Assembly (NCBI GenBank): GCA_963844885.1
Contig: CAWJQA010000018.1
Coordinates: 208,675 to 272,674 of the forward strand
Reading direction: 5' to 3'
Source: an uncultured Holophagales bacterium
Lineage (GTDB): Bacteria > Acidobacteriota > Thermoanaerobaculia > Multivoradales > UBA5704
DNA length: 64,000 bases
Below the pieces are notes generated by a model. It saw nothing but the letters and a program-made list of their open reading frames with translations. It ran no database searches and had not been told where the DNA came from. Numbering within the stretch: position 1 is the stretch's first letter; each line of letters begins with the position of its first letter. Below, one piece after another: positions 22,739 to 50,319 of the stretch. The translations under genes were made by a program, and so were the position numbers.

Positions 22739-22740
22739 CC

Positions 22741-27962: not shown

Positions 27963-29641
27963 CACCCGGCAGCCCGCTCCCGGCCTGGCCCGCACTCGAC
28001 GCGGGCGACCATCCTTTTCCTCAACGTCTCGGCTACGAGCGCGCGGTCTGGGGCAAAGTCCACGCCTCTCCCGGAGACTATCGATGGATCGCGGCCTCGC
28101 CGTCCTTCGCCCCCGCCCTCCAGCAGATCGAGCGCGAATTGCAGCTCGGCAGCGAGGACGTGCCAGAGCGGGCCACCCACTGGCGCAACACCGGCGAGCA
28201 CTGCCTCGCCATGGTCTGCTACCCCAGCCGCGCCGCCGACGCCGCCGGCCGTTCCAACTTCCTGGAAAAGCAGATCCTTGCCTGGAGGCGCCCCGCCGAG
28301 GTTCCGGCGGTGCTCGGAGCCCTCCTCCTCTTGCCGCGGATCGCGCAGGCGGATGACGACATCTGGTGGGACAAGCCCGCGCAGAGCCGCTGGTCGGAGG
28401 ACGACACCCTTTCCATCCCTCCGGAGGACCATCCGCCCGTCCCCGTTTCACCGGATACGCTCGCCGAAGCCGTCGCCCGGGGGACGGCCGAGCTGCGTGC
28501 AGCCCTCCACGAAGACTCCCTCACCGATCTTTACGCCCACATCCTGGCCGGTCATCGCGCCGTGCCCCTGGCCGGCCTCGCCGCGCCGCTCGGCCCTGAA
28601 GCCGTGGCCGCCCTCCTGCTGCCGCTCCCGCGCGCCCTCGCCGACGGCTACTCCGTCGCCGGCTGGCTCCCTTCGCGGCGGTTGCCCGACCTGGCCGAGC
28701 TGCAGCGGTGCTGGGGCGTCGTGCTCGGAGGCGCCACTCTGCCGCCGCCACCGCCCGTGTCGCCGTCTCCCGAACAGCGCCGCCAGGCGCAGACGCTGGC
28801 CCAGGCCATCCTGGCCAACGACCCGGCCATCCTCACCGGCGCGCCGACCCCTGCCGCCGCCCCGGTGGCTGTTTCCGGAGGCCCTTCCCCGATCCGCCTC
28901 GCCATGTGGGGCCCCTCTTCCGCCGGCAAGACGGCGCTCCTCGCCAAGCTCTACCTGGAAGACGACGAAGAGATCGACTGGGAGGTCTTCCCGACCGCGA
29001 CCTCGCTCCAATTCATCCAGGACATGCGCGCCCACATGCGGACGAGCAACGCCTTCCCGCCGGCCACTACCGGCTCCGTCGAACAGATCGAATATCAGTT
29101 CCGCCACCGCTTGGCCGGAACCGAGGCCTCCCTCCGCCTGGAAGACCGGGCCGGCAGCGAGTCCGAGAAACTCACCGACGCGATCCGCGTGCAGCTAGGC
29201 GAGGCGCACGGGCTCGTCCTCGTCTTCGATCCCCTGGCCGAAGGGTCGTCTCTGGAAAGCCAGGTCTGGCGTACCCTCGAGCACGTCCACGTGGCGAGCG
29301 GCCGGCGCGTCCACAAAGACAGCCGCCCCATCGCCGTCTGTGTCTCCAAGGCGGACGTCCTCATCGAGACGATCGACGACCTGAGGAGCGCGCGGGAAGA
29401 CCCCGACGGCTTCGTCCGCCGGCGTGATCGTATGGGCCTGGTCAAGGCTCTGGACCGGTTCTGCAGCAACTACCGGCTATTTCCCGTCTCCGCCGCCGGC
29501 ATCCGGGTGCGCCACGGTGTGATCGAGCCCGTGGTCTTCTACGATGAAGGCCTGAGCCCCCGCCTCTGTCCCGGAGGCCGTCCTCTCAACGTCAAGGCGC
29601 CTTTCGCCTGGCTTCTGGAACAAGTGACGAGTCGATCGTGA
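27959..29641 (+). CDS. Ras-like (TRAFAC-class) P-loop GTPase with a ~310-aa unknown N-terminal domain
   Basis: 560 aa. G1 is AMWGPSSAGKTALL (28910-28933), G3 is LEDRAGSE, G4 is CVSKADV and G5 is FPVSAAG. The N-domain (ERAVWGKVHASPGDYRWIAAS...) is repeated in the next locus. Confidence 0.75.
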   Translation: MTPGSPLPAWPALDAGDHPFPQRLGYERAVWGKVHASPGDYRWIAASPSFAPALQQIERELQLGSEDVPERATHWRNTGEHCLAMVCYPSRAADAAGRSNFLEKQILAWRRPAEVPAVLGALLLLPRIAQADDDIWWDKPAQSRWSEDDTLSIPPEDHPPVPVSPDTLAEAVARGTAELRAALHEDSLTDLYAHILAGHRAVPLAGLAAPLGPEAVAALLLPLPRALADGYSVAGWLPSRRLPDLAELQRCWGVVLGGATLPPPPPVSPSPEQRRQAQTLAQAILANDPAILTGAPTPAAAPVAVSGGPSPIRLAMWGPSSAGKTALLAKLYLEDDEEIDWEVFPTATSLQFIQDMRAHMRTSNAFPPATTGSVEQIEYQFRHRLAGTEASLRLEDRAGSESEKLTDAIRVQLGEAHGLVLVFDPLAEGSSLESQVWRTLEHVHVASGRRVHKDSRPIAVCVSKADVLIETIDDLRSAREDPDGFVRRRDRMGLVKALDRFCSNYRLFPVSAAGIRVRHGVIEPVVFYDEGLSPRLCPGGRPLNVKAPFAWLLEQVTSRS

Positions 29642-34413: not shown

Positions 34414-36908
34414 TCAGGAAGCGGCATCTCTTCCGATCTCAGCCAGAGAGCCGCGTCGCCGCATCCAATCCGCGACGCTGGTCACGAAGTCGGGATTGGT
34501 CCAAAAATCGAACTGTCAGCTCCCCTCAAAGCGCTCAGAGCGTAGGAGCCGAGAGCCTCTTCGACCGACCTGCGCCTGGCCGCCAAAGCCTGCGGCTGGC
34601 GTTGCCCGGCGTTCTCGTAAAGGAGCGCGGACTGCGCAAGATCGAGAGCCGGAAGCGACCAGGGATCGCGCGACATGGCGAGGAGAGGTCGAAGGCTTGT
34701 CGAATGTACCGGCGAATTCCGAGTACTTCAGGACGAGAACGTGGGCTTCGCGTCCCTGGAAGAACGGCTCGTTCCGGATCGTCTCCACCAGCACCGCGAG
34801 TGCTCCCAGGTCGGCCGCCTTCCGAGCCAGGTCTCCGATCTGATCTTCTTCAAAGGGTGGATCCAGGGCCACGAGCGGCGCTCCAGGAATTTCGCTTCTA
34901 TCGCTTATTTGGGGGGAGATCGCAGACCACCTTTTTCCACGCCTCCAGGTGAGCCTCCCGGCCTTTCGTCCAGGCGTCACCGGTGATCCATGCCATGGCT
35001 CGGCCTGAAGCTGAGCATGATCCAGCTTAGGCTCCTGCCTCCATGCGTACCACCAGCCGCTTTCGATCAGGGCGCGAGTCGTTTCCTCCAACCTCTCCAG
35101 CATCAGCCTGTCGAGGATGCGGAAAAACCGCGGGAAATCATCCTCCTGTATCGTTCGGGGAAGCTCGGTGAGCAGGCGCTTCGCGAAGCCGTTCTCCGAG
35201 CCGGGTGATTGGGTGCCCCGAAGACCTCGGTCAGGAGGAGATAGAGTCCCGGGTCTGCCGTAGGCCGGAGATCCTTGCCGGCTGCGAAGAGGAGAGGTGC
35301 CAGATCGCGTGGCAGGTCCGGGTGACGATCCGGACCGGCTCGAGCACCTGGCGCGGCAGATCTCGCCAGGTTTTCGGAAACAAAAAGTCCGGAATCGCCA
35401 GGAAGCGGCGAGCCATCTCGATAGAGCCCGCCTCCTCGGTCCTTGCGAAGAGCTCGCCAGCCCAGTCAGAGGCGACTCCTCCTTTGCGGACCTCGTCCGC
35501 GAGGAAAGTGAAAACCCTCTTATCCGCCGCCAGGTCCGCGAGCCGGCGTGCCGGGAGCTTGCACATCCGCGCCGCCGCTGCCGCATTGCTCACGAGCTTT
35601 CGGTCCAACAGATCCATCAGCTTCCGGACCTTGCCGAGATCGGCGCCGTCCCACCACTCGTCCAGCCGTTCGTCGATGCTCCATCCCTTCTTCTGGGCCA
35701 GGATCTCTTCCACGGTCCCCTGAAAACCCTGTGCTCCTGGAGGCATGGAGCTTGTATCGAGAAGCACCAGCGCCTGCAAAGCGTCGGATGGAAAGGCGGA
35801 CCATTCCTCGGGAGTGATCAGTCGATCCCAGATCTCTCCCGGGCCGAGCCACTGAGCAACCTTCGGCAGGTAGCTCAACAGGAGTTGTTTCCGGTCTTCC
35901 AGGCTCCCAGCCAGAACCACCGCAAGGTTGTAGGTCGGCTCGATCGCCCGCACGCTCTCCGGATCGGGGAGGCTGCGAGACGGCAAAGGCGCCTCGAACC
36001 GCTTACTGAACCGCTCACTGAACAGGCCGAGGCCCTCGGGGATCTTGACCGCTCTTTTCAGCCACCGCCTCGGCATAGGCGAGCGCGGACCGCTCCACGG
36101 CCGGTCCTGCCAGACGCCCACCGTTCCGATCAAGCAGGATGGCCTCGCGGCGGACTCCGAGAGCCTGGCTCGCCACCTCCTCCGGCACCACCACCAAGGT
36201 GGCCTTGAGATGACCAAGGAAAAGCTCGGGTGTCCGGGTGTAGAGGCGGACGCTGCAGTCGCGTTTGAGCCCGGCAGGCAACGCCCCCACGGGCAAACGA
36301 AACCAGGGCATGAAGAGGTGATCCGGCGGCAAACTCCATCACCGGTGCCGCGATGATCAGCGGGCGCCTCTGAACACAGGCCTGAAACAGATGAGCCAGA
36401 AAAGAAACAGCCGCCGGGGAATTCCCTTCGACATCCTTCGGCCGGGTCATCCATGGGGCAGACTCGACGCGGCCGAGCTTCCGGTGTACGCATGCCCGGA
36501 TCCTTGTCCCGCCAGGGTTTCTCAAACGCTTCGCTCTGTCCTCGAAGAGCCTGGATCAAAACCCGGCGACATCGGCGAGTCGAGGTCCCAGGCAAAGCCC
36601 TGGGAGAAGTAGGCGACCCGGAGGTCGTAGACTCCCGCCGGGCACCAGCCGTTACCACGAATTGCCGGCCGGACGCGCTGAAGCAGGACCAGGCTTCCAG
36701 GCCATCCTTCAACCTCTCGTGATCGACCCGGTTCCGAGTCCAAGGTCATCCACGGCCGGATGACCTCGAGCAGCTTCGCGTCTTTCAGGTTTTTGCTCGC
36801 GTCCAGGTACTGCTCGCCATGCGCCACGGACTGACCGGGACCTTCCCCGATCCCTTTCGTGGACTGGCCCCGGTAGACCCAGTCAAGCCTTGGACGATTG
36901 TCATCCAT
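34414..36908 (-). pseudogene. One or two heavily frameshifted genes of unknown function (at least 6 frame changes)
   Basis: Protein-like segments are scattered over all three minus frames. These include MDDNRPRLDWVYRGQSTKGIGEGPGQSVAHGEQYLDASKNLKDAKLLEVIRPWMTLD (36908 down), RPLIIAAPVMEF, and LPPDHLFMPWFRLPVGALPAGLKRDCSVRLYTRTPELFLGHLKATLVVVPEEV. Further segments are AVKIPEGLGLFSERF...VLEPVRIVTRT, FAKRLLTELPRTIQEDDFPRFFRILDRLMLERLEETTRALIESGWWYAW, and DPPFEEDQIGDLARKAADLGALAVLVETIRNEPFFQGREAHVLVLKYSEFAG. The last one, DFVTSVADWMRRRGSLAEIGRDAAS, ends at the stop at 34414. Confidence 0.45.
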
Positions 36909-36917
36909 GCCGCAAGC

Positions 36918-38084
36918 TCACATCAACGCGTTGTCACGTTCGCACAGCGCCACAAGCAAGGGCAGCTCCACATGAACCGGCACCGGGGCCTTCATTCCGG
37001 GCTGCCGCTTCTCAGGAGTCATCTGATCGAGCTTCGATCCCTCGATTGCACTGACTGGAACCAGCCAGGGACGGCCTCCGAAGTCGAGCCGCTGAGGAAT
37101 TGCGGCGACCCGGGGATCCTCGCTCGACAGCAACTCCTCATGAAGGGCCTCGGACACCTGCCGGGCATTGGCCAGATAGCGGGCCACTCCTGAGCCTTTT
37201 CTTAGCTGTCTGAGGTAAGTCATCGGAGAATCCGTGTCCGGAGAAATCCAGTTGTCGTAGATCTTGGAGAGGACGCTGCGACGATCGTCCGCCTGTGTCA
37301 AAGCGAGGATGGTCTTGACCGGCTGGCGCTGCTTCGCCTCTTCCCGTACGTCCGTGTAGTTTTCCACCACCTGCTCCAGGCCGTTCAGGAGTACCTCCCG
37401 GTCCTGCCAATCCTTTGGAGTCATGTTGCTGGACGGAAACGCCGCCCACAACGGAAGGCAGAACACCATCACGCTGGCATGGAGATATCCCTCTTTCCAG
37501 ACTTTTCGGTTCTCCTCGTTGAGCGGCGCCTCGAAAAACTCCCCCGCTCCGTCAAAAAACTCAACGTCCATGACGGCCCGATCCCGTCCAAGGAGACCCG
37601 TTCGGTACCGGAGCCGCAGGCGGTACCAATATTGCGCCGAGCGGTTCGTCGGAGGGAGCCGCTCCCAAAGCCTGTATTTTTCAGCGAATTTGCCGATCTG
37701 AAGAGTCCGGGCCTGCTCTCCGCGCTGCAGCGCCCAGAAGAGACGAATTCCATCCAGATAGTAGTTGAGGGCCCCTGCATGAGCTCCCGCCAGAGTCCGG
37801 TAAACCATCGATTGGAACAGATAGCTCTTCCCGACGGACTTGCCGCCGACAATGCCGAGCTTTTCGGTGCCCGGCAGGTCGAAAGGCTCACTGTCCGGAT
37901 CGAAGTCATCGCCGGAATAGGGAAGAGGCTCCGCCGGTTCCTCCGGGGTGACTATGGCCTCCTCTGCTCGAACCGGAAATGGGACGAGACGGTTCTCCAG
38001 CCCCACTCCACCAGGAACGCTTTCGTCTGGAACGTCTCCGCCCCACCGATCGTTCACGCCTGCGTCTTGATCGCTCATCACCAT
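36918..38084 (-). CDS. Ras-like (TRAFAC-class) P-loop GTPase, second copy in the window
   Basis: 388 aa. G1 is LGIVGGKSVGKSYLF, G3 is EFFDGAGEF, G4 is ALTQADD and G5 is VPVSAIEG. It has the same motif order as the 27959 protein but is highly diverged. Confidence 0.75.
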   Translation of the reverse strand: MVMSDQDAGVNDRWGGDVPDESVPGGVGLENRLVPFPVRAEEAIVTPEEPAEPLPYSGDDFDPDSEPFDLPGTEKLGIVGGKSVGKSYLFQSMVYRTLAGAHAGALNYYLDGIRLFWALQRGEQARTLQIGKFAEKYRLWERLPPTNRSAQYWYRLRLRYRTGLLGRDRAVMDVEFFDGAGEFFEAPLNEENRKVWKEGYLHASVMVFCLPLWAAFPSSNMTPKDWQDREVLLNGLEQVVENYTDVREEAKQRQPVKTILALTQADDRRSVLSKIYDNWISPDTDSPMTYLRQLRKGSGVARYLANARQVSEALHEELLSSEDPRVAAIPQRLDFGGRPWLVPVSAIEGSKLDQMTPEKRQPGMKAPVPVHVELPLLVALCERDNALM

Positions 38085-38087
38085 CTC

Positions 38088-39744
38088 CTATCTACGCACC
38101 ACGCGGACCACAACAGCCCACTGATCCTGGAACAACTGCTCCAGTTCCGGGGGCTTGACCGAGATATCCTTCCCGACCTGGAACCCGTTTACTGCCGAGC
38201 CGCTCATTGGGAACGAGACTGGCGCCGACGAGACAGCCCGCGCCGCGTTTTCCAGATCAATCATCACCTTAGCTCGGTAATGTTCGCTGTCCATCTCGCC
38301 AGAAATCGGAAAGAGAAAGTAAATCTCCTCCGGAGCCTGGTAGGGTTCAAGGCTGCAATTGCCGCAAAAGGACTTATACACCAGGCGCATCTCGACCCGG
38401 AGCTCCGCTCCCAGCCCGCGCTTCCGGGGGAGATAGGAGTAACAATCGAGCCGGAAATACTGGAAGAAGCCCCTGGAATACCGTCCCGTCTCCCGGCAGC
38501 CCTGAAGGCGGTGCCTCTCCTCGACATCCCGCAACGTGAGCCGCATCAAGTTGGGCAGATCCGCCGGACGGAGCGCGTCCTCGCCGCCTCCGGTCATTGA
38601 GGTCTGGAGGAGGTCGACGAGAGGGATTTCCGAGCGTGCCAGAAGCGCTTCATGAGACGGGACTCGATATACCGCCCACCCGTCGGTCCACGTGCCTTCC
38701 TGGTCGTGCAGGTGTTGCCTCAACATTTCCTTCGCGGCGCTGCAATGTTGCTTGAGGTCTACCCAGGCGTGGCTCGCGGGTGGCGCGCCTTCGAGCTCGA
38801 CCTCGTCGAAGATTCGGCCGATCTCTTGATGATAGAGGCCCACCACCTCGCTGGCTGGTGGGAATGCGAGCCCGATCTCCCACCGGTCCGAATCGGTATT
38901 CCAGAAGATCGCGGGCTCCTGGAAGGTGGAGACGAGAGGCACCTTGTCCGGATCGAGACCAGCCACTGCCGCGTCCGCCAGTCCGGAAGCCGCCGCGGCG
39001 AGATCGCCGTCCTTGCCGAGGATGGCCGCCTCCTGCCAGAGCTGTGCATTCCCGAGCAGGACGTTCGGCCGGACCGGATCGAGTCGGTTCACGGCCTTCG
39101 AAGCAGCCTCCGGATCGGCTTCCAGGTGAGCCCAGTCGTGCCGGCTCACCTCCTGGACCTCGGTTGTCCAGAGGCGCAGTTGATCGATCGCCTGATCTAT
39201 GCCGACCCTCTTCTGGTTGACGATTCCCGGCCCGTCCAGGCAACGCCGGGAACAACCACGAGGAGGACCAGCAGAAGCGACAGTGGAGCACTGTGCTGCA
39301 CCCAGGCGCTGTCCGGCCGGAGCTTGACGAGGCGGGGCAGTAGAGTCACCGCCGCCGCCAGCCCCGCGACCGCCAGAGCATCCAGAAGGGAGTTCTCCCG
39401 GATCCGGGTCGACAGCACACAGAGAGCTGTATTGACGACCGCCAGAAACAGGCACCACCAGCGAGGCCAGGGCCGTCCGGCCGCCGGCGGCACGCGAAGA
39501 CGACGTACCAGGCCAGCAGGGCAGCGACCAGCGATACAGTCAAACCCGCGCGGCCAGGCAGTACGAACAGCGCCCGCATCTCCCGGTCGTGCATCAGGAA
39601 GGCCAGGACCAGCACGAACACGGCCGCTGAAGCAACGGACAGCGCCACCGCCGGGAGCGCCAGGGTCCATAGTTTCCGGACACCCTTCGCCTCCAGCGGG
39701 TCCGGGATCTCCGTCTCCAACTCGCGATGACCTACGTCGGGCAC
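38088..39744 (-). CDS. Multi-TM N-terminus plus ~400-aa soluble domain, unknown function; two frame breaks (~39480 and ~39230)
   Basis: Three track ORFs in three frames are involved. ORF 39346..39744 has TM segments. ORF 39197..39670 has more TM segments (WWCLFLAVVNTALCVL, LSLLLVLLVVVPGVAW). ORF 38088..39458 encodes the soluble part from ..GIVNQKRVGIDQAIDQL... Together they read as one protein if single nucleotides are restored. It ends 3 nt before the GTPase gene. Confidence 0.55.
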
Positions 39745-39840
39745 GTCTCCTCCCTTCCTCGGGATGGAACCTCGGTGCTCCTATATAGTCACCAGCCGCG
39801 GCAGAAGGTTTAGTCTGGATCGAGGTTCCGTCACCGCCGC

Positions 39841-40065
39841 GGAAAGGAACGTTCTCGCGGTGAACAGGAACGTCTCCGCATGAAAACGAAGCGTAACTCG
39901 CGAGGAAAAGAACGCGGCAAAATGAAAATGGAGCGTAATGTAGTGAAATCGAAGCGTATCATCCGAGGAAGGGAACGACGAAAAAGAAGAACAGAGCGTA
40001 AGTTTTGGGGAAGAGAACGTCCGTGCATGAAAATAAGGCGTAAATCTTGAGGCCGCGAACGCCTC
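39841..40065. repeat. Eleven tandem ~21-nt degenerate repeats (GAA-N4-5-GA(A/G)CGT-like unit) in an AT-richer intergenic region
   Basis: Cores gaacg/gaagcg/gagcg/aggcg start at 39847, 39868, 39888, 39910, 39931, 39951, 39973, 39994, 40015, 40036 and 40057, with spacing of 20-22 nt. The array lies between the start of the 39744 gene and the stop of the 40144 gene, both on the minus strand. It also contains a 56-codon K/R-rich + strand ORF (39880-40050). Confidence 0.75.
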
Positions 40066-40143
40066 CGCATCGCTCGGAGACGTTGCCGGCCAAGACGGGG
40101 AGGATGCCAAAGGGAAGATTGGCGTTGCGTGGCGGGGTGAAAC

Positions 40144-40881
40144 CTAGCCGCAGAAGTCCACATCAGGAGCGTAGTTGGGAAGACCGATGAAGAGGATCTC
40201 TACATCCACACTTCGAAACTGCCCACCCTTATCTCCATGCTCACGCCCCTTCAAGTCGACCTTGACCGGCATCTTCTTCATGAGATCCTGCGCCAGCGCG
40301 GCAGCCCTGGCGCAGGCAAGAAGCTCGTTGTCCAGCGTTTTCTCTCCGGCCTCCAGAGTCCGGTTTCTACCGCCCACGAAGCACGGCAGGGGCAAGCCTT
40401 CATAGTCAAGCCCGCCGCTAACCGGTATGGAATCCGCAGTTCCTGTGGACGACAAAGCGATCTTGAGTCGGTTTGTCGGGACGCCGCGAAATAATCCGTA
40501 GACATCCGCAAAGCATGACGCCAGCATAGCCGCGTCCGGTGAATCGGCAAGTTTGAACTTTCCCGGGGCATAAAAGTCCCGCTTCGCGATGATCCGAACG
40601 GTCGTTGTGTCACCGTTTTGCACTTGATCGCATGTAACGCCGGGCACGAGGTTCTTCACGGTGTTCTGGATCACGATACGGCTCTTCTCTGTCCCTTGCC
40701 GCACGGCGCTCGCTACCTGTGCTTCGTCCGGCACGGCTGGCACGGGCGTCGGCGCCGGCTGGCCTACCGGCGCAGAAGCTCTCCATAGGATGGCGGCAAT
40801 CAGGCCGAGATAACCGACAACCGTCGCCACGACAGCGAAAGCCCTTCGAGTGACATCACCCTCGCTTCCTTCGGCACCCAT
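40144..40881 (-). CDS. Membrane-anchored protein with divergent OmpA/MotB-like C-terminal domain
   Basis: 245 aa. The N-terminal TM segment is AFAVVATVVGYLGLIAAILW. FYAPGKFKL..RLKIALSSTGTADSIPV..DNELLACARAAALAQDLMKK..FRSVDVEILF follows the OmpA_C pattern (FxxGsxxL / GhTD / NxxLSxxRA / RRVEi) but is degenerate. Confidence 0.5.
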   Translation of the reverse strand: MGAEGSEGDVTRRAFAVVATVVGYLGLIAAILWRASAPVGQPAPTPVPAVPDEAQVASAVRQGTEKSRIVIQNTVKNLVPGVTCDQVQNGDTTTVRIIAKRDFYAPGKFKLADSPDAAMLASCFADVYGLFRGVPTNRLKIALSSTGTADSIPVSGGLDYEGLPLPCFVGGRNRTLEAGEKTLDNELLACARAAALAQDLMKKMPVKVDLKGREHGDKGGQFRSVDVEILFIGLPNYAPDVDFCG

Positions 40882-41677: not shown

Positions 41678-42175
41678 CTAGGCCTCGGCCCCCCTTCCCT
41701 CGCTCACAACTCCCGCCCTCCACATGGAAAGGAGGCCCACGAGTCCGCCTCCGATCTCGCCGACGATGAGCCCCCCAATCCCGGCGGCCAGACAGCCCAA
41801 GACCATGATGGAGAGGATGACGGTCCAGACAGTCCCGCCTACTCCCTGGGTAAGCGAAAACATGAGGGCCAGCATCAGGCAGAGGATGACGCTCTTGACG
41901 AATTGGCTCGCCAGGCTTGCCAGCAGGCCTACCATCGCGCCGCCAACTGCGCAGGCGGAAAGACTCGCGCCCGAACGGCGTCGCAAGGTCAGGGCATACA
42001 TACCGGCCCCCGTGAGAAGTACCGCCTGGGACAATCCGATCATGGCGAAGGCCATCCTAACCTGCCGATCGAATGGCTGGCCGAATAATGCAAGCGGGAA
42101 CACGAGCTCGATGAAAAATTGAAGGATCGCGACAACAAAGGCCGGGAGGATCGCTCGGCGAAAGATGTTTTTCAT
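41678..42175 (-). CDS. Small polytopic membrane protein (module B), paralogue of 44288..44782
   Basis: An internal ATG of track ORF 41678..44248 gives 165 aa (MKNIFRRAILPAFVVAILQF...). The ATG overlaps the TGA of the upstream protease frame (ATGA at 42172-42175). RRRSGASLSACAVGGAMVGLLASL parallels RRRSDAGLSACFLDGAMIGLLSNL in module A. Confidence 0.65.
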   Translation of the reverse strand: MKNIFRRAILPAFVVAILQFFIELVFPLALFGQPFDRQVRMAFAMIGLSQAVLLTGAGMYALTLRRRSGASLSACAVGGAMVGLLASLASQFVKSVILCLMLALMFSLTQGVGGTVWTVILSIMVLGCLAAGIGGLIVGEIGGGLVGLLSMWRAGVVSEGRGAEA

Positions 42176-44215
42176 GACAGCGCCTCGATGAACAGCCATG
42201 GCGCCAAGCTGTTTCCACAGGCCGGGCAACGGTCGGCCACCGAGGCCTTCCCCGCATCTTTTCCGCAATGCGGGCACCGCGGTCTTCTTCCGTCCTCCCG
42301 GCGGACCTCCCGGACGGCCAAGGCGAAGAGCATCAAGGCCAAAAGGAAGAGGAATCCCAGTAGCCCGACCGACCCCATGGCTAAGGCTCCCATCACCTTG
42401 ATCATTTTCATCGACGGCCAGATCCAGAACTGGCCACCCAGTAGAATCAGGACCAGCGGCCACAGGAGGATCGTCGAAGCCCACTTCAAGATCCGAAGCT
42501 GTCGCGCTGGCTTTTGAGCCGCGAGGTGGGTACCCAGCAACCGCCTGGCGAAGAGTCGAATCGTCGACAGCCACGCCCAGAAAGGCAGGGTTGCGAACAG
42601 CACCCACAGGATCAGTCCCAGGAACCCCCAGGATTGCCCGGGCAGCGCCGGCGTCATCGGCAACAGGATCAGTCCGGCCTCGAATCCCAGGGCGGTGAGG
42701 AAGGCTGGCTTCAGCAGGGACCTGTACGGATGAGGATTGCGAAGGTCTTGCGCTACCTGAAGCACGCTCTCTCTGCGCCTGCACGCCGAGGGTTCCAGCC
42801 AGAAAGTACGACACGGCGGACAAGAGGCTGAAAGCGGAGACAAAAATCAGAGCTCCCCAAACGAAGCCACCCAAGGGGTAGTATAGCCGCATGGCGGCGG
42901 CCATGCCGTGGGACTGGATGAATCCTTCGATGATCGAGTTGGTCATCAGGACACCCAGAGCATCGGTGATGAGCACGATCACGCTCGTCATGGTAAGGGT
43001 GCCGCCGATAAGGTAGCCAAACAGGATTCCCGCCAGGAAAGGGACATCTCCGCTGATGCCGAGCACCTGGTTCGAATGATCGAGGACGTCTCGCCGCTCC
43101 GCGAAGGTGGGGTGTTTTCGCCAGAGACGGGCAAGGCGCTGCAAAAGCGCGCCCGGTTTGACAGGCCGGCTCTCGTTCTTCTCTTCGAGCGCGGATCGTA
43201 AAGGCTCTCCCGCGTTCCAGAGCAGGGCGGTCCGCAGATCAGCATCATGCTCGCGCCCGCGCAGGATGCCGCGACGGATCAATTCGACGACAAGCAGTGT
43301 CGCGAGCACGTGCAGGGAGACGACGACTGGAAGCCAGCCCGGAACCGGCGAAGCGCCTCCAGAGAACCAGAAAATCCAAAGAGCACCGATCAGGATGGCA
43401 AGGACCGGCACAAGCACAATCCACGACGCCTCTGCCCAATAAGACCGTGTAGTATCACGGTTCGCCAGGTGGGAAAGCTCGTGAAGAACCATGGCTCGCG
43501 AAGAATAGGGTTTCCCGTGTTCCCGGATCTCTTTGCGCAGGATGGCGGGAACCGCCCGGGTCAGGACGATGACTGGACGCTTTGATGATCCATACGCCTG
43601 TCCGTCGCCAACCGCACCCCGGGAGAGCAGAAACTTCGGCCATGGCAAAGAGCGTTCACCAAGCTTGCGTTGCAGCTCCTGGGCTTCCTCGACCAGGGCG
43701 TGCATGATTTTTTGAAACTCCGGCCGTTCTTCAGCCGTCGATCCGGCGAGGCGCGTGAACCAGAGAAGGTGTGCGCGAATGAAATAGAACGCAAGAATGC
43801 AGAGAAGCGAAAGAAGCAGGAAGAGAAGTGGGAACAAGAGATACGGCACCATGACTGCCAGCCGGTAGCGAGCTGACCGCGACAATTGCGCGAGCGCCGC
43901 TTCTGTCCGGGCCAACTCCCCGGGCTTCTCCAGATCCATGTACTCTTGGCCGAGGCCTTGCAACCACGCTGTAAGGTCTTCCGGCGAGGGAAGAATCGAA
44001 GGCTGATCGTCTTCCACATCCAGGATGTCGCGATCCAGCTTCGGCAGCGCATCGATGGCCGGCCACCTCAGGTTTTCGGCAAGAACCTTGGCGAAGAAAA
44101 ACCCGATCCCCCAGCACAGGCTCAGAATCGCCCATATCAGGAGGATGGACCGTAGTTGGGTCTCGCTGGGAAAAGCGAACGGGTTGAGGAGCCTTCCGGG
44201 TTTCTCTTCGGCCAT
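42172..44215 (-). CDS. M48-family metalloprotease with C-terminal zinc ribbon (paralogue 2, module B); frame break in a (CT)4/(AG)4 run at 42767-42774
   Basis: It starts MAEEKPGRLLNPFAFPSETQL with a GGAGGGAGAG Shine-Dalgarno upstream of ATG 44215, and carries HELSHLANRD and GREHDADLR. After ..GTLGVQAQRE the homology to module A (QRESVLQ...HPYR..PAFLTALGFEAG...RCPHCGKDAGKASVADRCPACGNSLAPW) continues in track ORF 42172..42843. Confidence 0.75.
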
Positions 44216-44287
44216 GTCTCTCCCTCCGGCGGTTGAGGATGTAGACACCTCCCTGCGGCCGTTGTGTAGGCCTTTCGGCTCAGGCTT

Positions 44288-44782
44288 CTACAGGACCGCC
44301 GCTTCCGAGCCTTCCGACTTCCGCTTGTTTCCCGATCCAGCCCTCGAAACGAGCCCGACGAGCCCTCCTCCCATTCCACCGAGAACAAGTCCCGTGAAGG
44401 CGTAGATCAGCACAATCACCGAGGAGAGGACGAGAAAAGAAATCCACCAGCCCGGGTCCGCTCCGCTGGAACGCGGCACGAGGGATTCCATCAGCGGAAC
44501 GCTCGCTCCGATGAATGGGATCTGCACGACGAGGTTCGAGAGCAGGCCGATCATGGCGCCGTCCAGGAAACAAGCGGAGAGACCGGCGTCCGACCTGCGC
44601 CGCAAGAGAACGGCGTGTACGGCGCCTCCGGCAAAGCTCGTCATCATGAACAGCGCCAGGAGAAGACAATCTTTCGAGAACCAGCCTGTGCGCGGAATTA
44701 CAACCGGCATCGAAAGGACCGCGAGCTGGCTCACTGCGACCACGAGAGTCGGCACCAACGTTCTCCGCATTAGCATTTTCAT
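44288..44782 (-). CDS. Small polytopic membrane protein (module A)
   Basis: An internal ATG of track ORF 44288..44857 gives 164 aa (MKMLMRRTLVPTLVVAVSQL...). It has an ATGA overlap with the upstream protease stop (44779-44782). Confidence 0.65.
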   Translation of the reverse strand: MKMLMRRTLVPTLVVAVSQLAVLSMPVVIPRTGWFSKDCLLLALFMMTSFAGGAVHAVLLRRRSDAGLSACFLDGAMIGLLSNLVVQIPFIGASVPLMESLVPRSSGADPGWWISFLVLSSVIVLIYAFTGLVLGGMGGGLVGLVSRAGSGNKRKSEGSEAAVL

Positions 44783-46836
44783 ACCGGGGCACCCTCCCCA
44801 CTTGCCTGTGCATCGATGAGCAGCCACGGGGCCAGGCTCTTGCCGCAGGTCTGACAACTCTCTGCGATCGTGATGGCACCGGGATCGCTCTTACAGACCG
44901 GACATCGCGGCCTCCGCGCTCCCTCCCGGCCGGCCTGCCAGATGCCCAGCGCGAAAAGCATCGAGGCCAGGAGAATCACGTACAGCACAAGCCCGATGAC
45001 TCCGAACGCCACGGCTGTGACGCCTGTTGCGGACCCTGGCCAGATCCACAACTGCCCACCCATGAGAGCCAGGAGCAACGGCCAGAGCAAGATCGTCGAG
45101 GCGATTTTCATCCCCTTGATGCGTCTGCCCGGCTTGCGCATTGCGACATGCCTGCCCAGGATTCTTCTGGCAAAGAATCGGATGGTCGCCAGCCATAGCC
45201 AGAAGATCAGCGTCGCGTAGCCCAGCCATGGGAGAATGCCCGGGATGGCCCAGGGTGTTCCAGGCAGCGCAAGGCTGAACGGCACCAGGAGCAGGCCGGC
45301 CTCGAAGCCGAGCGCGGTGAGGAAGGCGGGCATGCGAAGGGCCCGGTAGGGATGGGGATGGAGACGGCCCTCCATCATCTGCAGCACGCTCTCCCGTTGG
45401 GTCTGCACACCCAGCGTCCCGGCCAGAAGATAGGCTGGCATCAAGGGGAGGCCATAGACGGCGGCGATTGAAATGCATCCCCAGCCGGGCAGGCCGACCC
45501 TATAGTAGAACTGCATCGCGTAGACAAGGCCTTTCTCCGCGGCGTATTTCCGCGCCAGACCGGTGATCGCCAGAAGGGCCGAAGCGTCGACGGCGCTCAC
45601 GAGAACGCCCGTGAACAAAATGGCCACGATGAACAGGCTTCCGAACAAGAGGCCCGCAAGAACAGGAGCATCTTTCCCGATGCCAAAGACCAAGCCCGGG
45701 TTGTCAAGAACCTCTCGCCGCTCTTCGAAGGTGGGGTGTTTTTGCCAAAGGCGGATAAAGGGATGCAAGGGGCCGATCGGTTCGGCGGAGCCGTTCCCGT
45801 CGCCACGGTGAAGAGCGGCGCGGAGGAGATCGACTGCATTCCAAAGGAGGCCGGCCCGCAGATCGGCAAAGTGCTCGCGGCTTCGCAGCAGGCCTCTCCG
45901 GATCAGCTCGATGGCGAGCAGCGTTCCCAGAACCTGGAGGGAAACCACGATGGGGTGATACCTCGGTTCGTCGATACCCTCCGAGGACCAGGTCAGCCAA
46001 AGCGCGGCGATCAAGGTAACCAGGAGCGGGAGGAGGGCGACCCAGGATACCTCCGCCAAATAAGAGCGGTTGAGGTCACGGTTCGCAAGGTGCGCGAGCT
46101 CATGGAACATGAAAGCCCGGATGGAAGACGGCTTTCCGTGCTGCCGGATTTCCTTCCGCAGAAGCAGCGGGATTGCCCTGGATAGGACGAGGAGAGGTTT
46201 CCTGGAGGTTCCGTAGACCTGCCCTTCGCCTCTCGCCCCCCTGGAGATCAGGAATTTCGGGCGTGACAACGGCTTTTCTCCAAGATCGAGCTGCCGGCCT
46301 TGGACCTCCTCGACGAGACCGTACAAGGCGTCCTGATACTCAGTGCTTTCCCGGTGTTTCGATCCGGCGAGGCGGACAAACCAGAGGCGGCGGGCGCGGA
46401 CGAAGTACAACGCGAGGATGAACAGAAGCACCAGCAACAAGAAGGCAAACGGCAGGAAGAGATAGGACAGCGTGACGATCGCCTGGTCGTGTGCCCCTTT
46501 GGAAAGCCGTACCAGAGCCGCTTCTGTCCGGTCACGCTCCACTGGATCTGACAAAGACGAAAGCCGCTGCGCCAGCGCCTTCTCCCGCTTCTCGAGAGCG
46601 TCTGGCCCGGACATGAGCGAGCCGCCCTGAGCCTGAATCCCCCAGACGTCCCGCTCCAAATTAGGCAGGTCTCCGAGGGTCGGCAACCCGGCGCTGCTCG
46701 CCACGACGGAGATGAAGAAAAACCCCAGCTCCCAGCAAAGGCTCACGATCGCCCAGATCAGCAGGATGGACCGCAACTCGGTCTCGCTGGGGAAGGCGAA
46801 CGGGTTGAGGAGCCTTCGGTGTCTCTCTTCGGCCAT
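44779..46836 (-). CDS. M48-family metalloprotease with C-terminal zinc ribbon (paralogue 3, module A), intact
   Basis: It starts MAEERHRRLLNPFAFPSETEL at ATG 46836 and carries HELAHLANRD and SREHFADLR. It is polytopic. The C-terminus is RCPVCKSDPGAITIAESCQTCGKSLAPW. Confidence 0.8.
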   Translation of the reverse strand: MAEERHRRLLNPFAFPSETELRSILLIWAIVSLCWELGFFFISVVASSAGLPTLGDLPNLERDVWGIQAQGGSLMSGPDALEKREKALAQRLSSLSDPVERDRTEAALVRLSKGAHDQAIVTLSYLFLPFAFLLLVLLFILALYFVRARRLWFVRLAGSKHRESTEYQDALYGLVEEVQGRQLDLGEKPLSRPKFLISRGARGEGQVYGTSRKPLLVLSRAIPLLLRKEIRQHGKPSSIRAFMFHELAHLANRDLNRSYLAEVSWVALLPLLVTLIAALWLTWSSEGIDEPRYHPIVVSLQVLGTLLAIELIRRGLLRSREHFADLRAGLLWNAVDLLRAALHRGDGNGSAEPIGPLHPFIRLWQKHPTFEERREVLDNPGLVFGIGKDAPVLAGLLFGSLFIVAILFTGVLVSAVDASALLAITGLARKYAAEKGLVYAMQFYYRVGLPGWGCISIAAVYGLPLMPAYLLAGTLGVQTQRESVLQMMEGRLHPHPYRALRMPAFLTALGFEAGLLLVPFSLALPGTPWAIPGILPWLGYATLIFWLWLATIRFFARRILGRHVAMRKPGRRIKGMKIASTILLWPLLLALMGGQLWIWPGSATGVTAVAFGVIGLVLYVILLASMLFALGIWQAGREGARRPRCPVCKSDPGAITIAESCQTCGKSLAPWLLIDAQASGEGAPV

Positions 46837-46957
46837 GGGTGTCCCTTCGGCGGCTGGGGAGGTAGACACGTCCCGGCGGCCGTTGTGTAGGAGCGCCCGG
46901 CTCCGGCTCAACAAAGAAGCGGGAGAGAGTGTCTAACGGGCGGAAGGAGGACAAGGA

Positions 46958-47998
46958 ATGATTCTCGAGAGTCGGAAGGGCCAGGAGCTGGCCAAGTATC
47001 TGGCGCGGCCGATCGTCGCGCAGGTGGCGCCGGATGAGATCGAGGACTTCGAGGATCTCGCGGAGGACTTCTTTGAAGACCCCCGGCTGGAAGGCGACCA
47101 CACTCTCGGCAGCGGGCTCGAGCTGCTGCCGGATCTCGTGGTTATTTTGATGTTCGTGTCGGCGACGCTGGAGCATCTCCTGGCCAGGAACGGCTCGGCG
47201 TCTCCGAAGACTCTGCTGGAACGCCTGTCCAAGGCCCTCGTTCACGGACAGGAGGTCGATCGCAGTCCCTGGTTTTCACCCCAGGAGCTGCCGCCCGCTT
47301 TCGAGATCGCGAGCCAGAAGGCCCGGAATCTCACACCTCACATGCGCACACGGATCGAAGATCTCCTGCGCAAGCTCCTGCCGGTCGAGATCCAGTTTCT
47401 GTTCCTCGGCGCGAGCCCGGACACGCGCGAACGAATCAGGGTCGACCGCGAGCTCAGCCAGATCTCCGCTGTCCTCCGCGAAGCGCCTCTCGGGAAGCGG
47501 ATCGTCCTGCACCCAGCCCTCGCCGTCACACCGGACGAGCTTCAACGGACTCTCGTCGCCCACCATCCTCAGATGGTCCACTTCAGTGGACATGGAACCG
47601 AGACGAACGCCATCGTTGTCGAGGAGGCTTCCGGCCAGCCGCGGACCATCCCGGGTGACGGCCTTCTCGAGTTGCTCCAGATCTTCAAGGATGGGCTCCG
47701 TCTTGTGGTTCTCAACGCCTGCCACTCGGAGGCCCAGGCCCGAGACATCGCCGCCTATGTCGATGCGGCTGTCGGAATGGCCGGCTCCATCAGCGACGAC
47801 GCGGCCATGAGCTTCTCGCGGGCGTTTTACCGGGCGGTGGCCCATGGCGAGCACCTTCAACGGGCGTTCGAGCTCGGTTGTTCCCAGATCGGGTTGGACA
47901 AGTTTCCCGAGGAAGCCGGCATCCCCCGCCTTTTCGTCTTGCGTGAAGATCCTCGCGACATCGTCCTGGTCGATGTCGCCGAGGAGCCCGCAGCCTGA
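46958..47998 (+). CDS. CHAT/caspase-fold protease, short form, divergent from M48 module A
   Basis: 346 aa. QMVHFSGHGTE (His) and LRLVVLNACHSEAQA (Cys) form the caspase-like dyad. The ~100-aa N-terminal region weakly resembles the N-terminus of the 6546 CHAT protein. Confidence 0.8.
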   Translation: MILESRKGQELAKYLARPIVAQVAPDEIEDFEDLAEDFFEDPRLEGDHTLGSGLELLPDLVVILMFVSATLEHLLARNGSASPKTLLERLSKALVHGQEVDRSPWFSPQELPPAFEIASQKARNLTPHMRTRIEDLLRKLLPVEIQFLFLGASPDTRERIRVDRELSQISAVLREAPLGKRIVLHPALAVTPDELQRTLVAHHPQMVHFSGHGTETNAIVVEEASGQPRTIPGDGLLELLQIFKDGLRLVVLNACHSEAQARDIAAYVDAAVGMAGSISDDAAMSFSRAFYRAVAHGEHLQRAFELGCSQIGLDKFPEEAGIPRLFVLREDPRDIVLVDVAEEPAA

Positions 47999-48114
47999 GC
48001 TGAGCGCGGTAAATTGCCCTCCCCCTCCCGACCGCGATAGCATCGCGGGCCGGCTCGTTGCGCCGGCCTTGCGATCCGCATCCTGACGCGCCGGCGAGCC
48101 AAGTGACGCCCGAG

Positions 48115-48543
48115 ATGCCCGAGGAGGAAGCCGTGGACTTTTCCCTGACCGACGAGCAGCGTGCCATCCAGGCGACCGCGCGGGAGTTCGCTCGCCGCGA
48201 GGTCGATCCCATCGTGGACGAGTTCGACGAGAGCCAGAAGTTCCCCCGCCAGGTCATGGCCAAGGCGGGTGAGCTCGGTTTCCTCGGCATCCTCTTCCCC
48301 GAGGAGTATGGCGGCGCCGGGCTCGGCTATATCGAATACGTGCTGGTCGTCACCGAGCTGTCCAAGGTCGACCCGTCGGTCGGCATCAGCGTGGCGGCCC
48401 ATAACTCGTTGTGCAGCAATCACATCTACAAGTTCGGCTCCGAGGAGCAGCGGCGCCGCTGGCTGGTTCCCCTGGCCAAGGGGGAGAAGATCGGCGTTTG
48501 GAGCCTCACGGAACCCGGCTCGCTCACCACGATCGCCGAGTAG
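48115..48543 (+). pseudogene. Truncated duplicate of the acyl-CoA dehydrogenase 5' end (first ~135 codons)
   Basis: [75 protein letters not shown]... is near-identical to the start of the 50320 gene. Homology ends at ~48517 and is followed by an unrelated tail and a stop. Confidence 0.75.
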
Positions 48544-48599
48544 CTCCTGGACCAGAATGTCCCCGGCCAGCCGACCAGGTCGCTGACCTCGCGAGCTAG

Positions 48600-48713
48600 C
48601 TACGTCAAGAGTTGGACCAAAGCCGCGTCGGTCTTCGAGAAGTCATTGCCTTGAAGAGGAGCGGCGGCCTCTCCCAGGAGGATGGCCAGGAGGGCCGAGG
48701 TGTCGAGAACCAT
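48600..48713 (-). pseudogene. VapC/FitB-like PIN toxin remnant with in-frame internal deletion (37 codons)
   Basis: My own translation is MVLDTSALLAILLGEAAAPLQGNDFSKTDAALVQLLT. It joins the PIN N-terminus (MvLDTSAliA) directly to the family's C-terminal pLlfkGdDFskTD motif, leaving out the ~95 aa in between. The ATG shares one nt with the vapB stop. Confidence 0.5.
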
Positions 48714-48967
48714 CAGCCGAACGCGCCTCTCTCGTTGTACCCCAGGATCTTGTTGGCGTCCCGGGTATCGAGGTCGGGCAAAGAGTTGCAGCGCCGGCTG
48801 ATCGCCATGAGGGATTCGACAAGGTCGGGAGCGGACTGCCGGCCTTTCAGCCGCTCCAGGCGCTCTTCGAGAGCGTGGATGATCGCGTCCGTGAGGCTCT
48901 CACCCGCCTCGGCGGCCACCTGACGAGCCAGTTTCTCCGCCTTGTCATTCTTCAGGCTGATGCCCAT
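48713..48967 (-). CDS. vapB: VapB/FitA-like type II antitoxin
   Basis: 84 aa. MGISLKNDKAEKLARQVAAEAGESLTDAIIHALEERLERLK is the pattern of the antitoxin family that pairs with FitB/VapC PIN toxins. It lies immediately upstream of the PIN remnant. Confidence 0.65.
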   Translation of the reverse strand: MGISLKNDKAEKLARQVAAEAGESLTDAIIHALEERLERLKGRQSAPDLVESLMAISRRCNSLPDLDTRDANKILGYNERGAFG

Positions 48968-48999
48968 GGAGGGCCCTCCTGCCGACCAAACCCCTCTCC

Positions 49000-49563
49000 C
49001 TAGTAGAAGATCTCGGAGAGAGGTATCTCTAGCCCTGGGAGGAGAGGGCTCGCCAGGAGACCCCCCGCTTCTTCTGTGATCTCCGCGGCTTTCAGAAGGC
49101 GCTCCCCGGACCGGCGGTAGACGCGGGCCACCTCGCGCTCCGGATCGACGATCCAGTACTCCTGGACACCGAGGAGCTCGTAGCGTTCCAGCTTGATGCC
49201 CTCGTCTCTCCTGCGTGTCGAAGGGGAGAGAACCTCGATGACGAGGTCCGGTGGCCCTTGGACGTTCTTCTCCGTTAGAATCCGCGCTCTCGCTTGGGAG
49301 ACGAACAGGAGATCCGGCTGGACGATGTCATTCTCGCTCAGCAAGACGTCGGCAGGAGCCACGTAGAGACGGCCGAGACGGCGGCGGCGAACGAAAGGCG
49401 CGATCCAGGAGGTCAACTCGACAACGACGCTTTGATGCCGCAGGTACGGGGCCGCCGTCACAAAGTACTCCCCATCGAGGATCTCGTGGCGGTTCCCGTC
49501 GTCCGGGAAGAGCAGATAGTCCTCGTAGGTGAGCTTGCGATGGGCTGGGTCTCGAACGGCCAT
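49000..49563 (-). CDS. Uma2-family (DUF820) putative endonuclease
   Basis: An internal ATG gives 187 aa. YEDYLLFPDDGNRHEILDGEYFVTAAP...QPDLLFV...PPDLVIEVLSPST..D...K...Y...GVQEYWIVDP is the characteristic Uma2 pattern. Confidence 0.8.
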   Translation of the reverse strand: MAVRDPAHRKLTYEDYLLFPDDGNRHEILDGEYFVTAAPYLRHQSVVVELTSWIAPFVRRRRLGRLYVAPADVLLSENDIVQPDLLFVSQARARILTEKNVQGPPDLVIEVLSPSTRRRDEGIKLERYELLGVQEYWIVDPEREVARVYRRSGERLLKAAEITEEAGGLLASPLLPGLEIPLSEIFY

Positions 49564-49785
49564 GGCGATTCCTCTACCAACGTCCTGGAACAGTCTAGCA
49601 TCGGTGCTCTCCTCGACCGGGTCGGCCAAAGCATTTTTATCTCCACGCATCGGTGATTTTCTCCGCCAATATGCAGACATTCACGGTGGTCCATATAGCG
49701 CCTTCGGGTATCCTAGCATGGTATCCACGAGTTTTCGACCAGGACCCCGATAAGAAGAGGCATGCCTCCATGATACGATCCCTGC

Positions 49786-50250
49786 ATGGTTATGACGACG
49801 GGGCCCGTCGGGCAAGTCATCCGGGATTGGCGCGAGCGCCGAAATATGACCCAGAGGGAGTTGGCGGAGAAGTCCGGGCTTCACATCACGTCTCTCGGGG
49901 CTTATGAGCGAGGAGAGCGAACCCCTAAATTGGATTCCCTGGCCAGGCTCTGCTTCGCGCTGGACATCGAGCCCTCGGCTTTCTGCCTGGACGTGGCTCG
50001 GGCTGAGGCAGGCCGTTTGGCTCCGTTGGTGGACCAATTGAAGAAGAAGGCCGGACTGGAAATGCCCGAGAGGCCTCAGCAGGCTGGGCGAGTCGAAGAG
50101 CTTCGATGGGCTTCGGACCTCGTCTTCGATGGCATGAAGGATCTCTTCTTCTACATGATCCAGGATCTCTACGGAAAGAGGGAAGTAGAATACGAGGGGA
50201 TGCCCGCAAAGAAAAAAGAGACCTTCGACACGCCGAGGAGCTTCCGCTGA
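49786..50250 (+). CDS. XRE-family helix-turn-helix transcriptional regulator
   Basis: 154 aa. GQVIRDWRERRNMTQRELAEKSGLHITSLGAYERGERTPKLDSLARLCFALDIEP is a canonical Cro/C1-type HTH. Confidence 0.75.
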   Translation: MVMTTGPVGQVIRDWRERRNMTQRELAEKSGLHITSLGAYERGERTPKLDSLARLCFALDIEPSAFCLDVARAEAGRLAPLVDQLKKKAGLEMPERPQQAGRVEELRWASDLVFDGMKDLFFYMIQDLYGKREVEYEGMPAKKKETFDTPRSFR

Positions 50251-50319
50251 GGCCCAACCCCTCGTTGCCATCCCCCTCCCTCCCGCGATAGCATCACCGG
50301 CCGGCTCTTGACGCCCGAG

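Follow-up and report, generated by a model that had tools for sequence, protein, structure and literature searches.

A helically phased 21-nt repeat array, possibly a cis element, upstream of a conflict-type operon in an uncultured Holophagales bacterium

The stretch of DNA analysed here (hereafter the window: 64,000 nucleotides (nt) of contig CAWJQA010000018.1, assembly GCA_963844885.1, from an uncultured Holophagales bacterium) contains, between two co-directional minus-strand genes, an array of direct repeats with a period of 21 nt. The array lies upstream of the first gene of an operon that encodes a multi-pass transmembrane (TM) protein followed by a P-loop protein. The array is non-coding and is probably an element, specific to this lineage, with a regulatory or architectural role. 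The genes around it and its own parts are the following:

40144 to 40881, minus strand: upstream co-directional gene, encoding a 245-residue protein with a TM anchor; its stop codon is 13 nt from the end of unit 14
38088 to 39744, minus strand: first gene of the operon (the TM gene), encoding a multi-pass membrane protein of ~550 residues, homologous to L032:5334-6992 and L001:7960-9714 in related loci
36918 to 38084, minus strand: P-loop NTPase with the Walker A motif GGKSVGKS
39837 to 40088, plus strand: core array of 12 direct units of exactly 21 nt each, with an invariant CG and a periodicity far above that of shuffled sequences
39816 to 39836, plus strand: partial unit 0, with an in-phase CGT at 39829
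40089 to 40130, plus strand: degenerate units 13 and 14; unit 13 lacks the CG and unit 14 (AAGGGAAGATTGGCGTTGCGT) has an in-phase CGT at 40123
Starts at 39837, 39858, 39900, 39963, 40005, 40047 and 40068, plus strand: type A units 1, 2, 4, 7, 9, 11 and 12, consensus nnGAGGAAnnGAACGTCnCCG
Starts at 39879, 39921, 39942, 39984 and 40026, plus strand: type B units 3, 5, 6, 8 and 10, consensus mATGAAAAynrAGCGTAAnty

The array and the open frame across it

When the region is laid out in rows of 21 nt, the C of the core CG falls at 39850+21k for k = 0-11 (39850, 39871 ... 40081) with no insertion or deletion, so that CG occupies columns 14-15 in all 12 units and is followed by T at column 16 in nine of them. 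With the partial and degenerate units included, an in-phase CG is found in 14 of 15 successive phases from 39829 to 40123, the exception being the phase at 40102. A first-pass annotation made from the sequence had described eleven repeats recurring every 20-22 nt; the repeats are present where it placed them, but 12 full units were found, and the spacing is exactly 21 nt throughout rather than variable. It had also proposed a shuffled control, and here the periodicity stands well clear of the background: the autocorrelation of the array is 0.41, 0.49 and 0.48 at lags of 21, 42 and 63 nt, while 2000 dinucleotide-preserving shuffles gave 0.27±0.03 at lag 21 and a maximum of 0.41 over any lag; likewise, the 12 in-phase CG dinucleotides compare with a shuffle mean of 3.9 and a maximum of 7. 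Tandem Repeats Finder reported solely a 63-nt period, between 39881 and 40001, and this higher-order repeat shows 78% matches. The description of the region as AT-richer is borne out, with a GC content of 0.53 across 39837-40130 versus 0.655 for the whole window (the lowest value near the array is ~0.51), and its plus strand is 65% purine. The repeat is therefore confirmed, and it is more regular than first described.

The units belong to two distinct families, A (GAGGAAnnGAACGTC) and B (ATGAAAAnnnAGCGTAA), that are interleaved on the plus strand in the order A A B A B B A B A B A A. Identity within a family is 10-17 of 21 positions (6-11 of 21 for the outlier unit 12) and 2-10 of 21 between families, and the mean pairwise identity among all units is 44%, i.e., a divergence of ~56%. 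What the units have in common is the core A(A/G)CGT and its purine-rich flanks.

As one of two readings, it had been suggested that the period of seven codons reflects translation of a short open reading frame (ORF) within the array:

39880 to 40050, plus strand: 56-codon micro-ORF, judged not to be a gene

The description of this frame is correct, since the peptide has 27 lysine or arginine residues in 56 and the frame is open from the stop codon at 39811; moreover, an in-frame ATG or GTG occurs in four of the five B units, and columns 13 and 16, which vary, coincide with third codon positions. Nevertheless, the GC content at third codon positions (GC3) of the micro-ORF is 0.40, compared with 0.64-0.94 in 15 reference genes of the window, and its codon-usage log-likelihood amounts to -0.21 per codon, whereas the values of the reference genes are all positive (+0.08 to +0.60). 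No other frame of the array gives a coding-like signal, and the information content of the individual columns is no weaker at third codon positions and shows no three-base periodicity. A Shine-Dalgarno (SD) sequence was not found at a normal distance before the micro-ORF, and an exact look-up of three ORFs of the array, the micro-ORF peptide included, in a collection of 15 billion protein sequences returned no match. The frame is not preserved in relatives either: in a wetland-metagenome contig (X2, described below) codon 8 is changed from CGA to the stop TGA, a lysine is replaced by glutamate and the frame is locally shifted, and in the closest relative, L032, the locus is wholly replaced. 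Two features that had been put forward as a possible coding signature lose that value. The apparently synonymous variation of the core is what a purine-rich 21-nt DNA repeat would produce in any open frame, and the heptad continues beyond the stop codon because the period belongs to the DNA and simply runs on, as it also does before the start codon; similarly, the richness of the peptide in lysine, arginine, glutamate and glycine arises because purine-rich DNA read in an open frame yields these residues. Translation of the micro-ORF as a hyper-basic heptad peptide is therefore very improbable, and its annotation as a gene is unwarranted.

The strongest 21/42-nt periodic DNA of the window lies elsewhere, at 1800-2400 on the minus strand, where it corresponds to a coding heptad repeat, xxDERLVx (e.g., MFDERLVQVVERLVKSDERLVALIERL), apparently split by a frameshift between the ORFs 2100-2372 and 1262-2017.

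Promoter, leader and a possible role in RNA

The region upstream of the TM gene was compared in ~25 related loci; the percent identities given below for L032, L033 and L004 are those of the P-loop protein with its counterpart in the window. Between the array and the TM gene the following elements were recognised:

39807 to 39834, minus strand: putative sigma-70-type promoter of the operon, with the -35 element GTGACG (39834-39829), a 16-nt spacer and the -10 element TAAACC (39812-39807)
39751 to 39762, minus strand: SD region of the TM gene, CCGAGGAAGGGA, followed by GGAGAC-GTG
39763 to 39832, either strand: inverted repeat with the arms GATGGAACCTCG and CGAGGTTCCGTC (39763-39774 and 39821-39832), complementary at 11 of 12 positions

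The putative -35 element matches the consensus at four of six positions. A CTAAAC element upstream of the TM gene is kept in L004 and L039 (where it forms part of TTGACC-N17-TAAACT), in L032 and L033, and in L035-L038, and its conservation suggests a minus-strand promoter in the window as well. If so, the array would begin at the -35 hexamer, whose reverse complement is the CGTCAC of unit 0, and would reach to about -330.

The SD sequence of the TM gene is GGGAGGAG, before the GTG at 39744, and the SD region is an inverted copy of array unit 7 (39963-39974) at 12 of 12 positions; only one shuffle in 1000 gave an exact inverted match of at least 12 nt. Unit 12 has a similar counterpart in the start-codon region, with 11 of 13 positions matching, and when the four nucleotides GGAG are left out, the SD-plus-start region becomes a canonical type A unit. 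The SD region must be regarded as ancestral because it is present in L032 and L033, which lack the array, and from this it follows that the array may have started from an inverted copy of this region. The inverted repeat, with the core GGAACCTCG, flanks the putative -10 element and the leader of the TM gene and shares the half-site GGAAC with the type A units; it is partially conserved in L032 and absent from L033.

The complementarity between the array and the SD region raises the question of a role at the RNA level. In one form of this proposal the pyrimidine-rich repeats (CGUUCCCUUCCUCGG etc.) would act as anti-SD sequences in operon-sense transcripts that read through from the upstream genes, pairing with the SD sequence of the TM gene and blocking its translation; in another, a plus-strand RNA with ~10 SD-like GGA motifs would serve as a CsrB-like decoy for a factor that binds translation-initiation regions. 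The perfect 12-nt complementarity of unit 7 is consistent with the first form, as is the fact that unit 7 and the SD region pair in both the minimum-energy and the centroid fold of the minus-strand RNA (z = -2.1). Read-through transcription is plausible since the genes form a co-directional cluster that in L033 is tightly packed, with a gap of 41 nt, and the strong purine/pyrimidine asymmetry of the strands also agrees with a function in RNA. However, the array had no Rfam match, either at the gathering threshold or at E up to 10, the plus-strand RNA folds no better than shuffled sequences (z = -0.5), no terminator or consensus promoter delimits a small RNA, and the array would lie outside the mRNA if the putative promoter is the main one. 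As for CsrB and RsmZ, the array resembles these GGA sponges in carrying many GGA/AGGA motifs on one strand and in that the SD sequence of the downstream gene has the same motif; it differs from them in lacking hairpin-loop presentation as well as an Rfam match, a promoter and a terminator, and their RNAs do not have a strict 21-nt period. Furthermore, a second array at a homologous operon (L004) has neither complementarity nor similarity to its own translation-initiation region, and its purine/G-rich strand is the sense strand of the operon while that of the window is antisense; the RNA model thus leaves the shared 21-nt period unexplained. On balance, we consider a role at the RNA level doubtful.

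The array as a cis element, and related loci

The other reading of the first-pass annotation was a phased set of protein-binding sites on one face of the DNA. We favour a somewhat broader version of it, namely that the array is a helically phased non-coding cis element acting at the DNA level, and give it a probability of about 0.4. Given that 21 bp correspond to two turns of B-DNA, ~14 phased units would put every core on one face of the helix, and the array would act as an upstream operator or architectural region of the promoter of the operon. A single protein, or two proteins matching the A and B units, could oligomerise along this face; alternatively, the in-phase repeats could give an intrinsic bend or wrap that modulates the access of RNA polymerase. 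The inverted type A-like copy over the SD sequence and the start codon could be an auxiliary looping site. The promoter assignment, any binding of protein and the direction of any effect on expression are what we infer, whereas the exact phase, the conserved core, the two families of units, the position, the non-coding character and the restriction to one lineage are directly evident from the sequences. The exact phase and the conserved core of the array, kept although the units differ so much, speak for this reading, and so do its position against the putative -35 element, the conservation of CTAAAC, the phase-preserving indels of X2 (see below) and the lack of a coding signal, of an Rfam match and of excess structure in the plus-strand RNA; additional support comes from the second array:

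L004:3360-3700: second array of ~16 units with the core ATCGCGGCG(T/G), at an exact 21-nt spacing with a single slip of -1

In L004 (the sequence is the same in L005) the P-loop protein has 61% identity with that of the window. The L004 array lies upstream of the orthologous TM gene and ends ~165 nt before the clear promoter TTGACC-N17-TAAACT, within a lineage-specific insertion of ~1.5 kb relative to L039 (76% identical to L004), and it is flanked by inverted copies of its core at L004:3263-3290, 3773-3782 and 3874-3882. The unit profiles of the two arrays correlate at 0.35, under the 95th percentile of the null distribution (0.42), so that their motifs are unrelated, and the sole open frame over the L004 array is non-coding-like, with a GC3 of 0.45. 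The two arrays share their period and upstream position and not their sequence, strand or frame, which favours a function at the DNA level that depends on the face of the helix. No further array of this kind was found in the ~400 kb of loci that were fetched; the other periodic matches (21 nt in L009, L025, L029 and L023, and 24 nt in L003) are coding or simple repeats unrelated to the array.

A search of sequencing runs for this sequence found no RNA or Ribo-seq runs that contain it and, among DNA runs, gave only two short informative metagenome contigs. The wetland contig X2, of 172 nt, covers 39794-39960 with ~93% identity and, outside the window, is the only sequence in which the array itself was seen. 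It differs from the window by C>T at 39901 and A>G at 39889, the two changes that affect codon 8 and a lysine of the micro-ORF, and by a pair of -1 and +1 indels at 39915 and 39919; these indels, four bases apart, preserve the phase, and each substitution either affects a variable column or leaves a purine in place. The other contig, X1, from a soil metagenome, bears on the surroundings of the array, which correspond to the following segment:

39832 to 40138, either strand: hypervariable intergenic slot, defined by alignment and blastn and filled entirely by the array

X1 is 99% identical to the window over 39683-39823 and then, from 39823/39824, continues into a third sequence, different from those of the window and L032; its evidence is weak because it is a single low-depth contig.

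A number of observations weigh against a DNA-level function. An array was seen in just two of the ~25 upstream regions. In L032 (85%), the closest relative, the same slot holds ~245 nt of unrelated, non-periodic DNA, and the sequence on either side is shared with the window: on one side the last part of the OmpA-like gene up to and including its stop codon, on the other ~85 nt that run from GGACCTCGGTCCAGACTAAACC as far as the GTG; in L033 (75%) merely 41 nt separate the preceding gene from the TM gene and there is no array. The array is thus missing from the two closest orthologous loci, which indicates that it is dispensable for the operon. Conservation at such loci, on which the first-pass annotation had made a function depend, is absent in L032 and L033 and counts against a conserved role. 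Domain scans recognised no DNA-binding protein in or beside the operon. A search of the genome for further units had been proposed; within the 64-kb window it gave no other copy of type B and only chance-level matches to type A. The promoter is itself a putative one; a consensus scan called no promoter, the -35/-10 pair included, and returned one weak terminator-like match, on the minus strand, inside the array. With a wedge model, both arrays are predicted to be the most curved intergenic DNA of their loci, with end-to-end/contour ratios (lower values meaning more curved) of 0.78 versus 0.95±0.04 for the window and 0.83 versus 0.95±0.03 for L004; however, any 21-nt repeat is predicted to be curved and hence this is not independent evidence. 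Lastly, given the duplication of 63-nt blocks, an invariant CG and the lack of indels are, on a rough estimate, merely modestly improbable under neutrality.

A rival proposal is that the array is a functionless by-product, in which a short segment, possibly an inverted copy of the operon's own translation-initiation region, was amplified in blocks of 21, 42 and 63 nt in a recombination-prone slot and is now decaying, so that its periodicity is historical. The array fills exactly the slot that varies among close relatives (L032, X1 and L033), it contains the 63-nt higher-order repeat, and the matches of units 7 and 12 to the SD and start-codon regions point to an origin in the translation-initiation region; a lineage-specific insertion also houses the L004 array, and the searches revealed neither further copies nor a binding protein or a conserved partner. 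With no binder, no additional sites and absence from the closest relatives, a young amplification of this kind stays a serious rival. On the other hand, types A and B are as unlike as random sequences and yet carry the CG(T) in the same column in 12 of 12 units, no indel is seen in 252 nt despite the ~56% divergence of the units, compensating indels hold the phase in X2, and an unrelated array with the identical period is found at a homologous operon and nowhere else in the ~400 kb. Taken together, we regard this explanation as possible, though somewhat unlikely. If the array is not functional, it represents a clean case of young tandem amplification in a recombination-prone slot upstream of a promoter, and illustrates how periodic DNA rich in purines can take on the appearance of a heptad micro-ORF.

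In form, the array belongs with the phased direct-repeat cis arrays and is iteron- or operator-like. It resembles plasmid iterons (P1 incC/incA, R6K, RK2) in having direct repeats of ~19-22 bp at two helical turns, sites on the same face, and a conserved core with variable spacers; inverted half-copies are found at the rep promoter of these plasmids, and here an inverted copy extends over the beginning of the TM gene. In contrast to them, the array comprises 12-14 more degenerate units of two interleaved families, is not accompanied by an initiator gene, a DnaA box or an AT-rich unwinding element, occupies a slot upstream of a chromosomal operon, and is itself missing in close relatives. The proposal that the units are iterons or a centromere-like site (of the oriV or parS/parC type) of an integrated plasmid or mobile element was considered. 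With direct repeats spaced by roughly two helical turns and inverted copies close by, the array has the classical layout of iterons, and the GC3 of the window at ~30-50 kb is below that of the flanking regions, as in an acquired island. Nevertheless, Pfam, NCBIfam and PADLOC scans found no Rep, ParA, ParB or ParR-like gene in or beside the cluster; the region has no DnaA box, the sole DnaA-like 9-mer of the window (with at most one mismatch) being at 56267; the array returned nothing when compared by blastn with plasmid and phage records; the P-loop protein likewise had no counterpart in plasmids by tblastn, and a search of viral contigs for relatives was equally negative; the units are much more degenerate than known iterons; and the flanking genes are syntenic in relatives without the array. 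This origin is the least credible of those considered. A three-unit pattern scan of viral contigs gave nine matches, which is the chance level, and the sole periodic one (L048) is a coding repeat, probably of a phage structural protein.

Phased operators, such as the ARG boxes of ArgR with their 21-bp spacing, the 9-bp repeats and 12-bp spacers of LytTR regulators, and the sites of PhoP/PhoB, share with the array a period of 21-22 bp, direct repeats and a location directly upstream of the -35 element (here a putative one) or overlapping it; these operators, however, have two to six sites and a known regulator, and no such regulator gene was seen near the array. No consensus known for these operators corresponds to a unit of either family, and those of LexA (GAAC-N7-GAAC), ArgR, LytTR, PhoP, CpxR, CodY and sigma-54, when compared with the units, did not fit and were rejected as unsupported. 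Curved DNA with phased A-tracts is similar in that the array is AT-richer than the genome, has helically phased A-runs, should according to the wedge model be strongly curved, and precedes the putative promoter; it differs in that the classical period is 10-11 bp and not 21 bp with two A-runs 5-6 bp apart per unit, and in that curvature alone does not require the conserved CG core. The RNA arrays of type III toxin-antitoxin systems (ToxI, CptI, antiQ) are also tandem repeats directly upstream of defence-type operons, and their repeats differ between homologous systems. Their ToxI-type units, in contrast, measure 34-45 nt, are nearly identical, lie on the strand of the toxin and precede a terminator, and they are paired with a ToxN/AbiQ endoribonuclease. 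The array has none of these features; with units of 21 nt that are ~44% identical, and no defence or ToxN/AbiQ family in the operon by PADLOC and Pfam, this candidate was rejected. A CRISPR array was discarded since the 21-nt units are contiguous and show no alternation of repeat and spacer, versus repeats of 23-50 nt with spacers of similar length. The same applies to a MITE-like element (miniature inverted-repeat transposable element): aligned end to end in inverted orientation, the array scores no higher than shuffled sequences (p = 0.32), and no other copy was found in the window or in the set of fetched loci searched for it.

What sets the array apart from these systems is the presence of two interleaved families, its apparent derivation from the operon's own translation-initiation region and a convergent array of the same period at a homologous operon. 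If the preferred reading of a phased cis element is correct, the array would be a regulatory device of an uncharacterised and widespread conflict-type operon, and helical phasing would have evolved convergently with unrelated motifs.

The operon and the rest of the window

The operon encodes, in this order, the TM protein (~550 residues), the P-loop protein and proteins of ~1100, ~476 and ~365 residues, and the order is kept in many metagenome-assembled genomes of Acidobacteriota/Thermoanaerobaculia and in metagenomes. The P-loop family has more than 240 members, mostly from such genomes, and the L032 ortholog of the P-loop protein gives a weak, sub-threshold match to DO-GTPase2 (E = 0.003). 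No Pfam, NCBIfam or PADLOC family was found above threshold for the flanking and operon proteins; the C-terminal motif of the 245-residue protein encoded upstream, which has no Pfam match, is read by eye as OmpA-like. The reading frame of the TM gene changes twice in the window, near 39470 and near 39220, so that the gene occupies three frames, and the first switch coincides with a difference in the length of a G-run relative to a contig of the European Nucleotide Archive (L031, 98.8% identical). The window and L031 differ at 16 gap positions, mostly in or beside short base runs, which points to an indel-prone (long-read) assembly and not to pseudogenes; the frameshifts of the TM gene are therefore probable assembly errors. 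The next large gene, at 34516-36712 on the minus strand, also appears split.

NTP-dependent, NTPase-centred "conflict systems" have been predicted by Kaur et al. 2020 (PMC7159879). The operon is assigned to this group, and the window is rich in parts of this kind: DO-GTPase2, CHAT, vWA, Tubulin_2, MZB and three M48-like TM paralogs. In this context, a more elaborate version of the preferred reading can be imagined, in which arrays of the same period and unrelated sequence are a recurrent, fast-evolving accessory of an operon with a TM protein and a DO-GTPase-like protein. Such an array would be a docking track for a co-evolving factor, either encoded by the operon or a nucleoid protein of the host, that polymerises on one face and determines the threshold at which a system that may harm its own host is expressed; exchange of the slot between strains would re-tune this threshold, and the track of the window, arisen from inverted copies of the translation-initiation region, might also be an anti-SD trap for read-through transcripts. 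This scenario is decidedly speculative, and we consider it improbable as a whole.

Several of these parts lie in a co-directional block on the plus strand (6546-29641) with CHAT at 6546-8510, vWA at 14575-16926, Tubulin_2 at 17250-20246, MZB at 22717-25641 and DO-GTPase2 at 27959-29641. Three large ORFs encode multi-pass TM proteins, one on the plus strand (2794-4902) and two on the minus strand (41678-44248 and 44779-46914). The first contains an HExxH motif (HEVGH), read off the translation; the other two give weak matches to HtpX/Peptidase_M48. At least these two have homologues among the conserved genes that precede the operon in L032 and L033, and a CHAT protease gene (46958-47998) adjoins them.

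A match to the Acido-Lenti-1 RNA (RF01687) at 1628-1673 on the minus strand, with 38.8 bits and over the gathering threshold, fits the Acidobacteriota origin of the DNA; it falls within the minus-strand ORF 1262-2017. Finally, an acyl-CoA dehydrogenase gene is split within 48058-51485, with its N-terminal domain at 48058-48543 and its middle and C-terminal domains at 50616-51485. The ~2 kb between them, which look like an insertion, are on the opposite strand and contain genes for an Rv0623-like antitoxin-type transcription factor (48713-48967) and a Uma2 endonuclease (49000-49680), together with an ORF of 315 residues.

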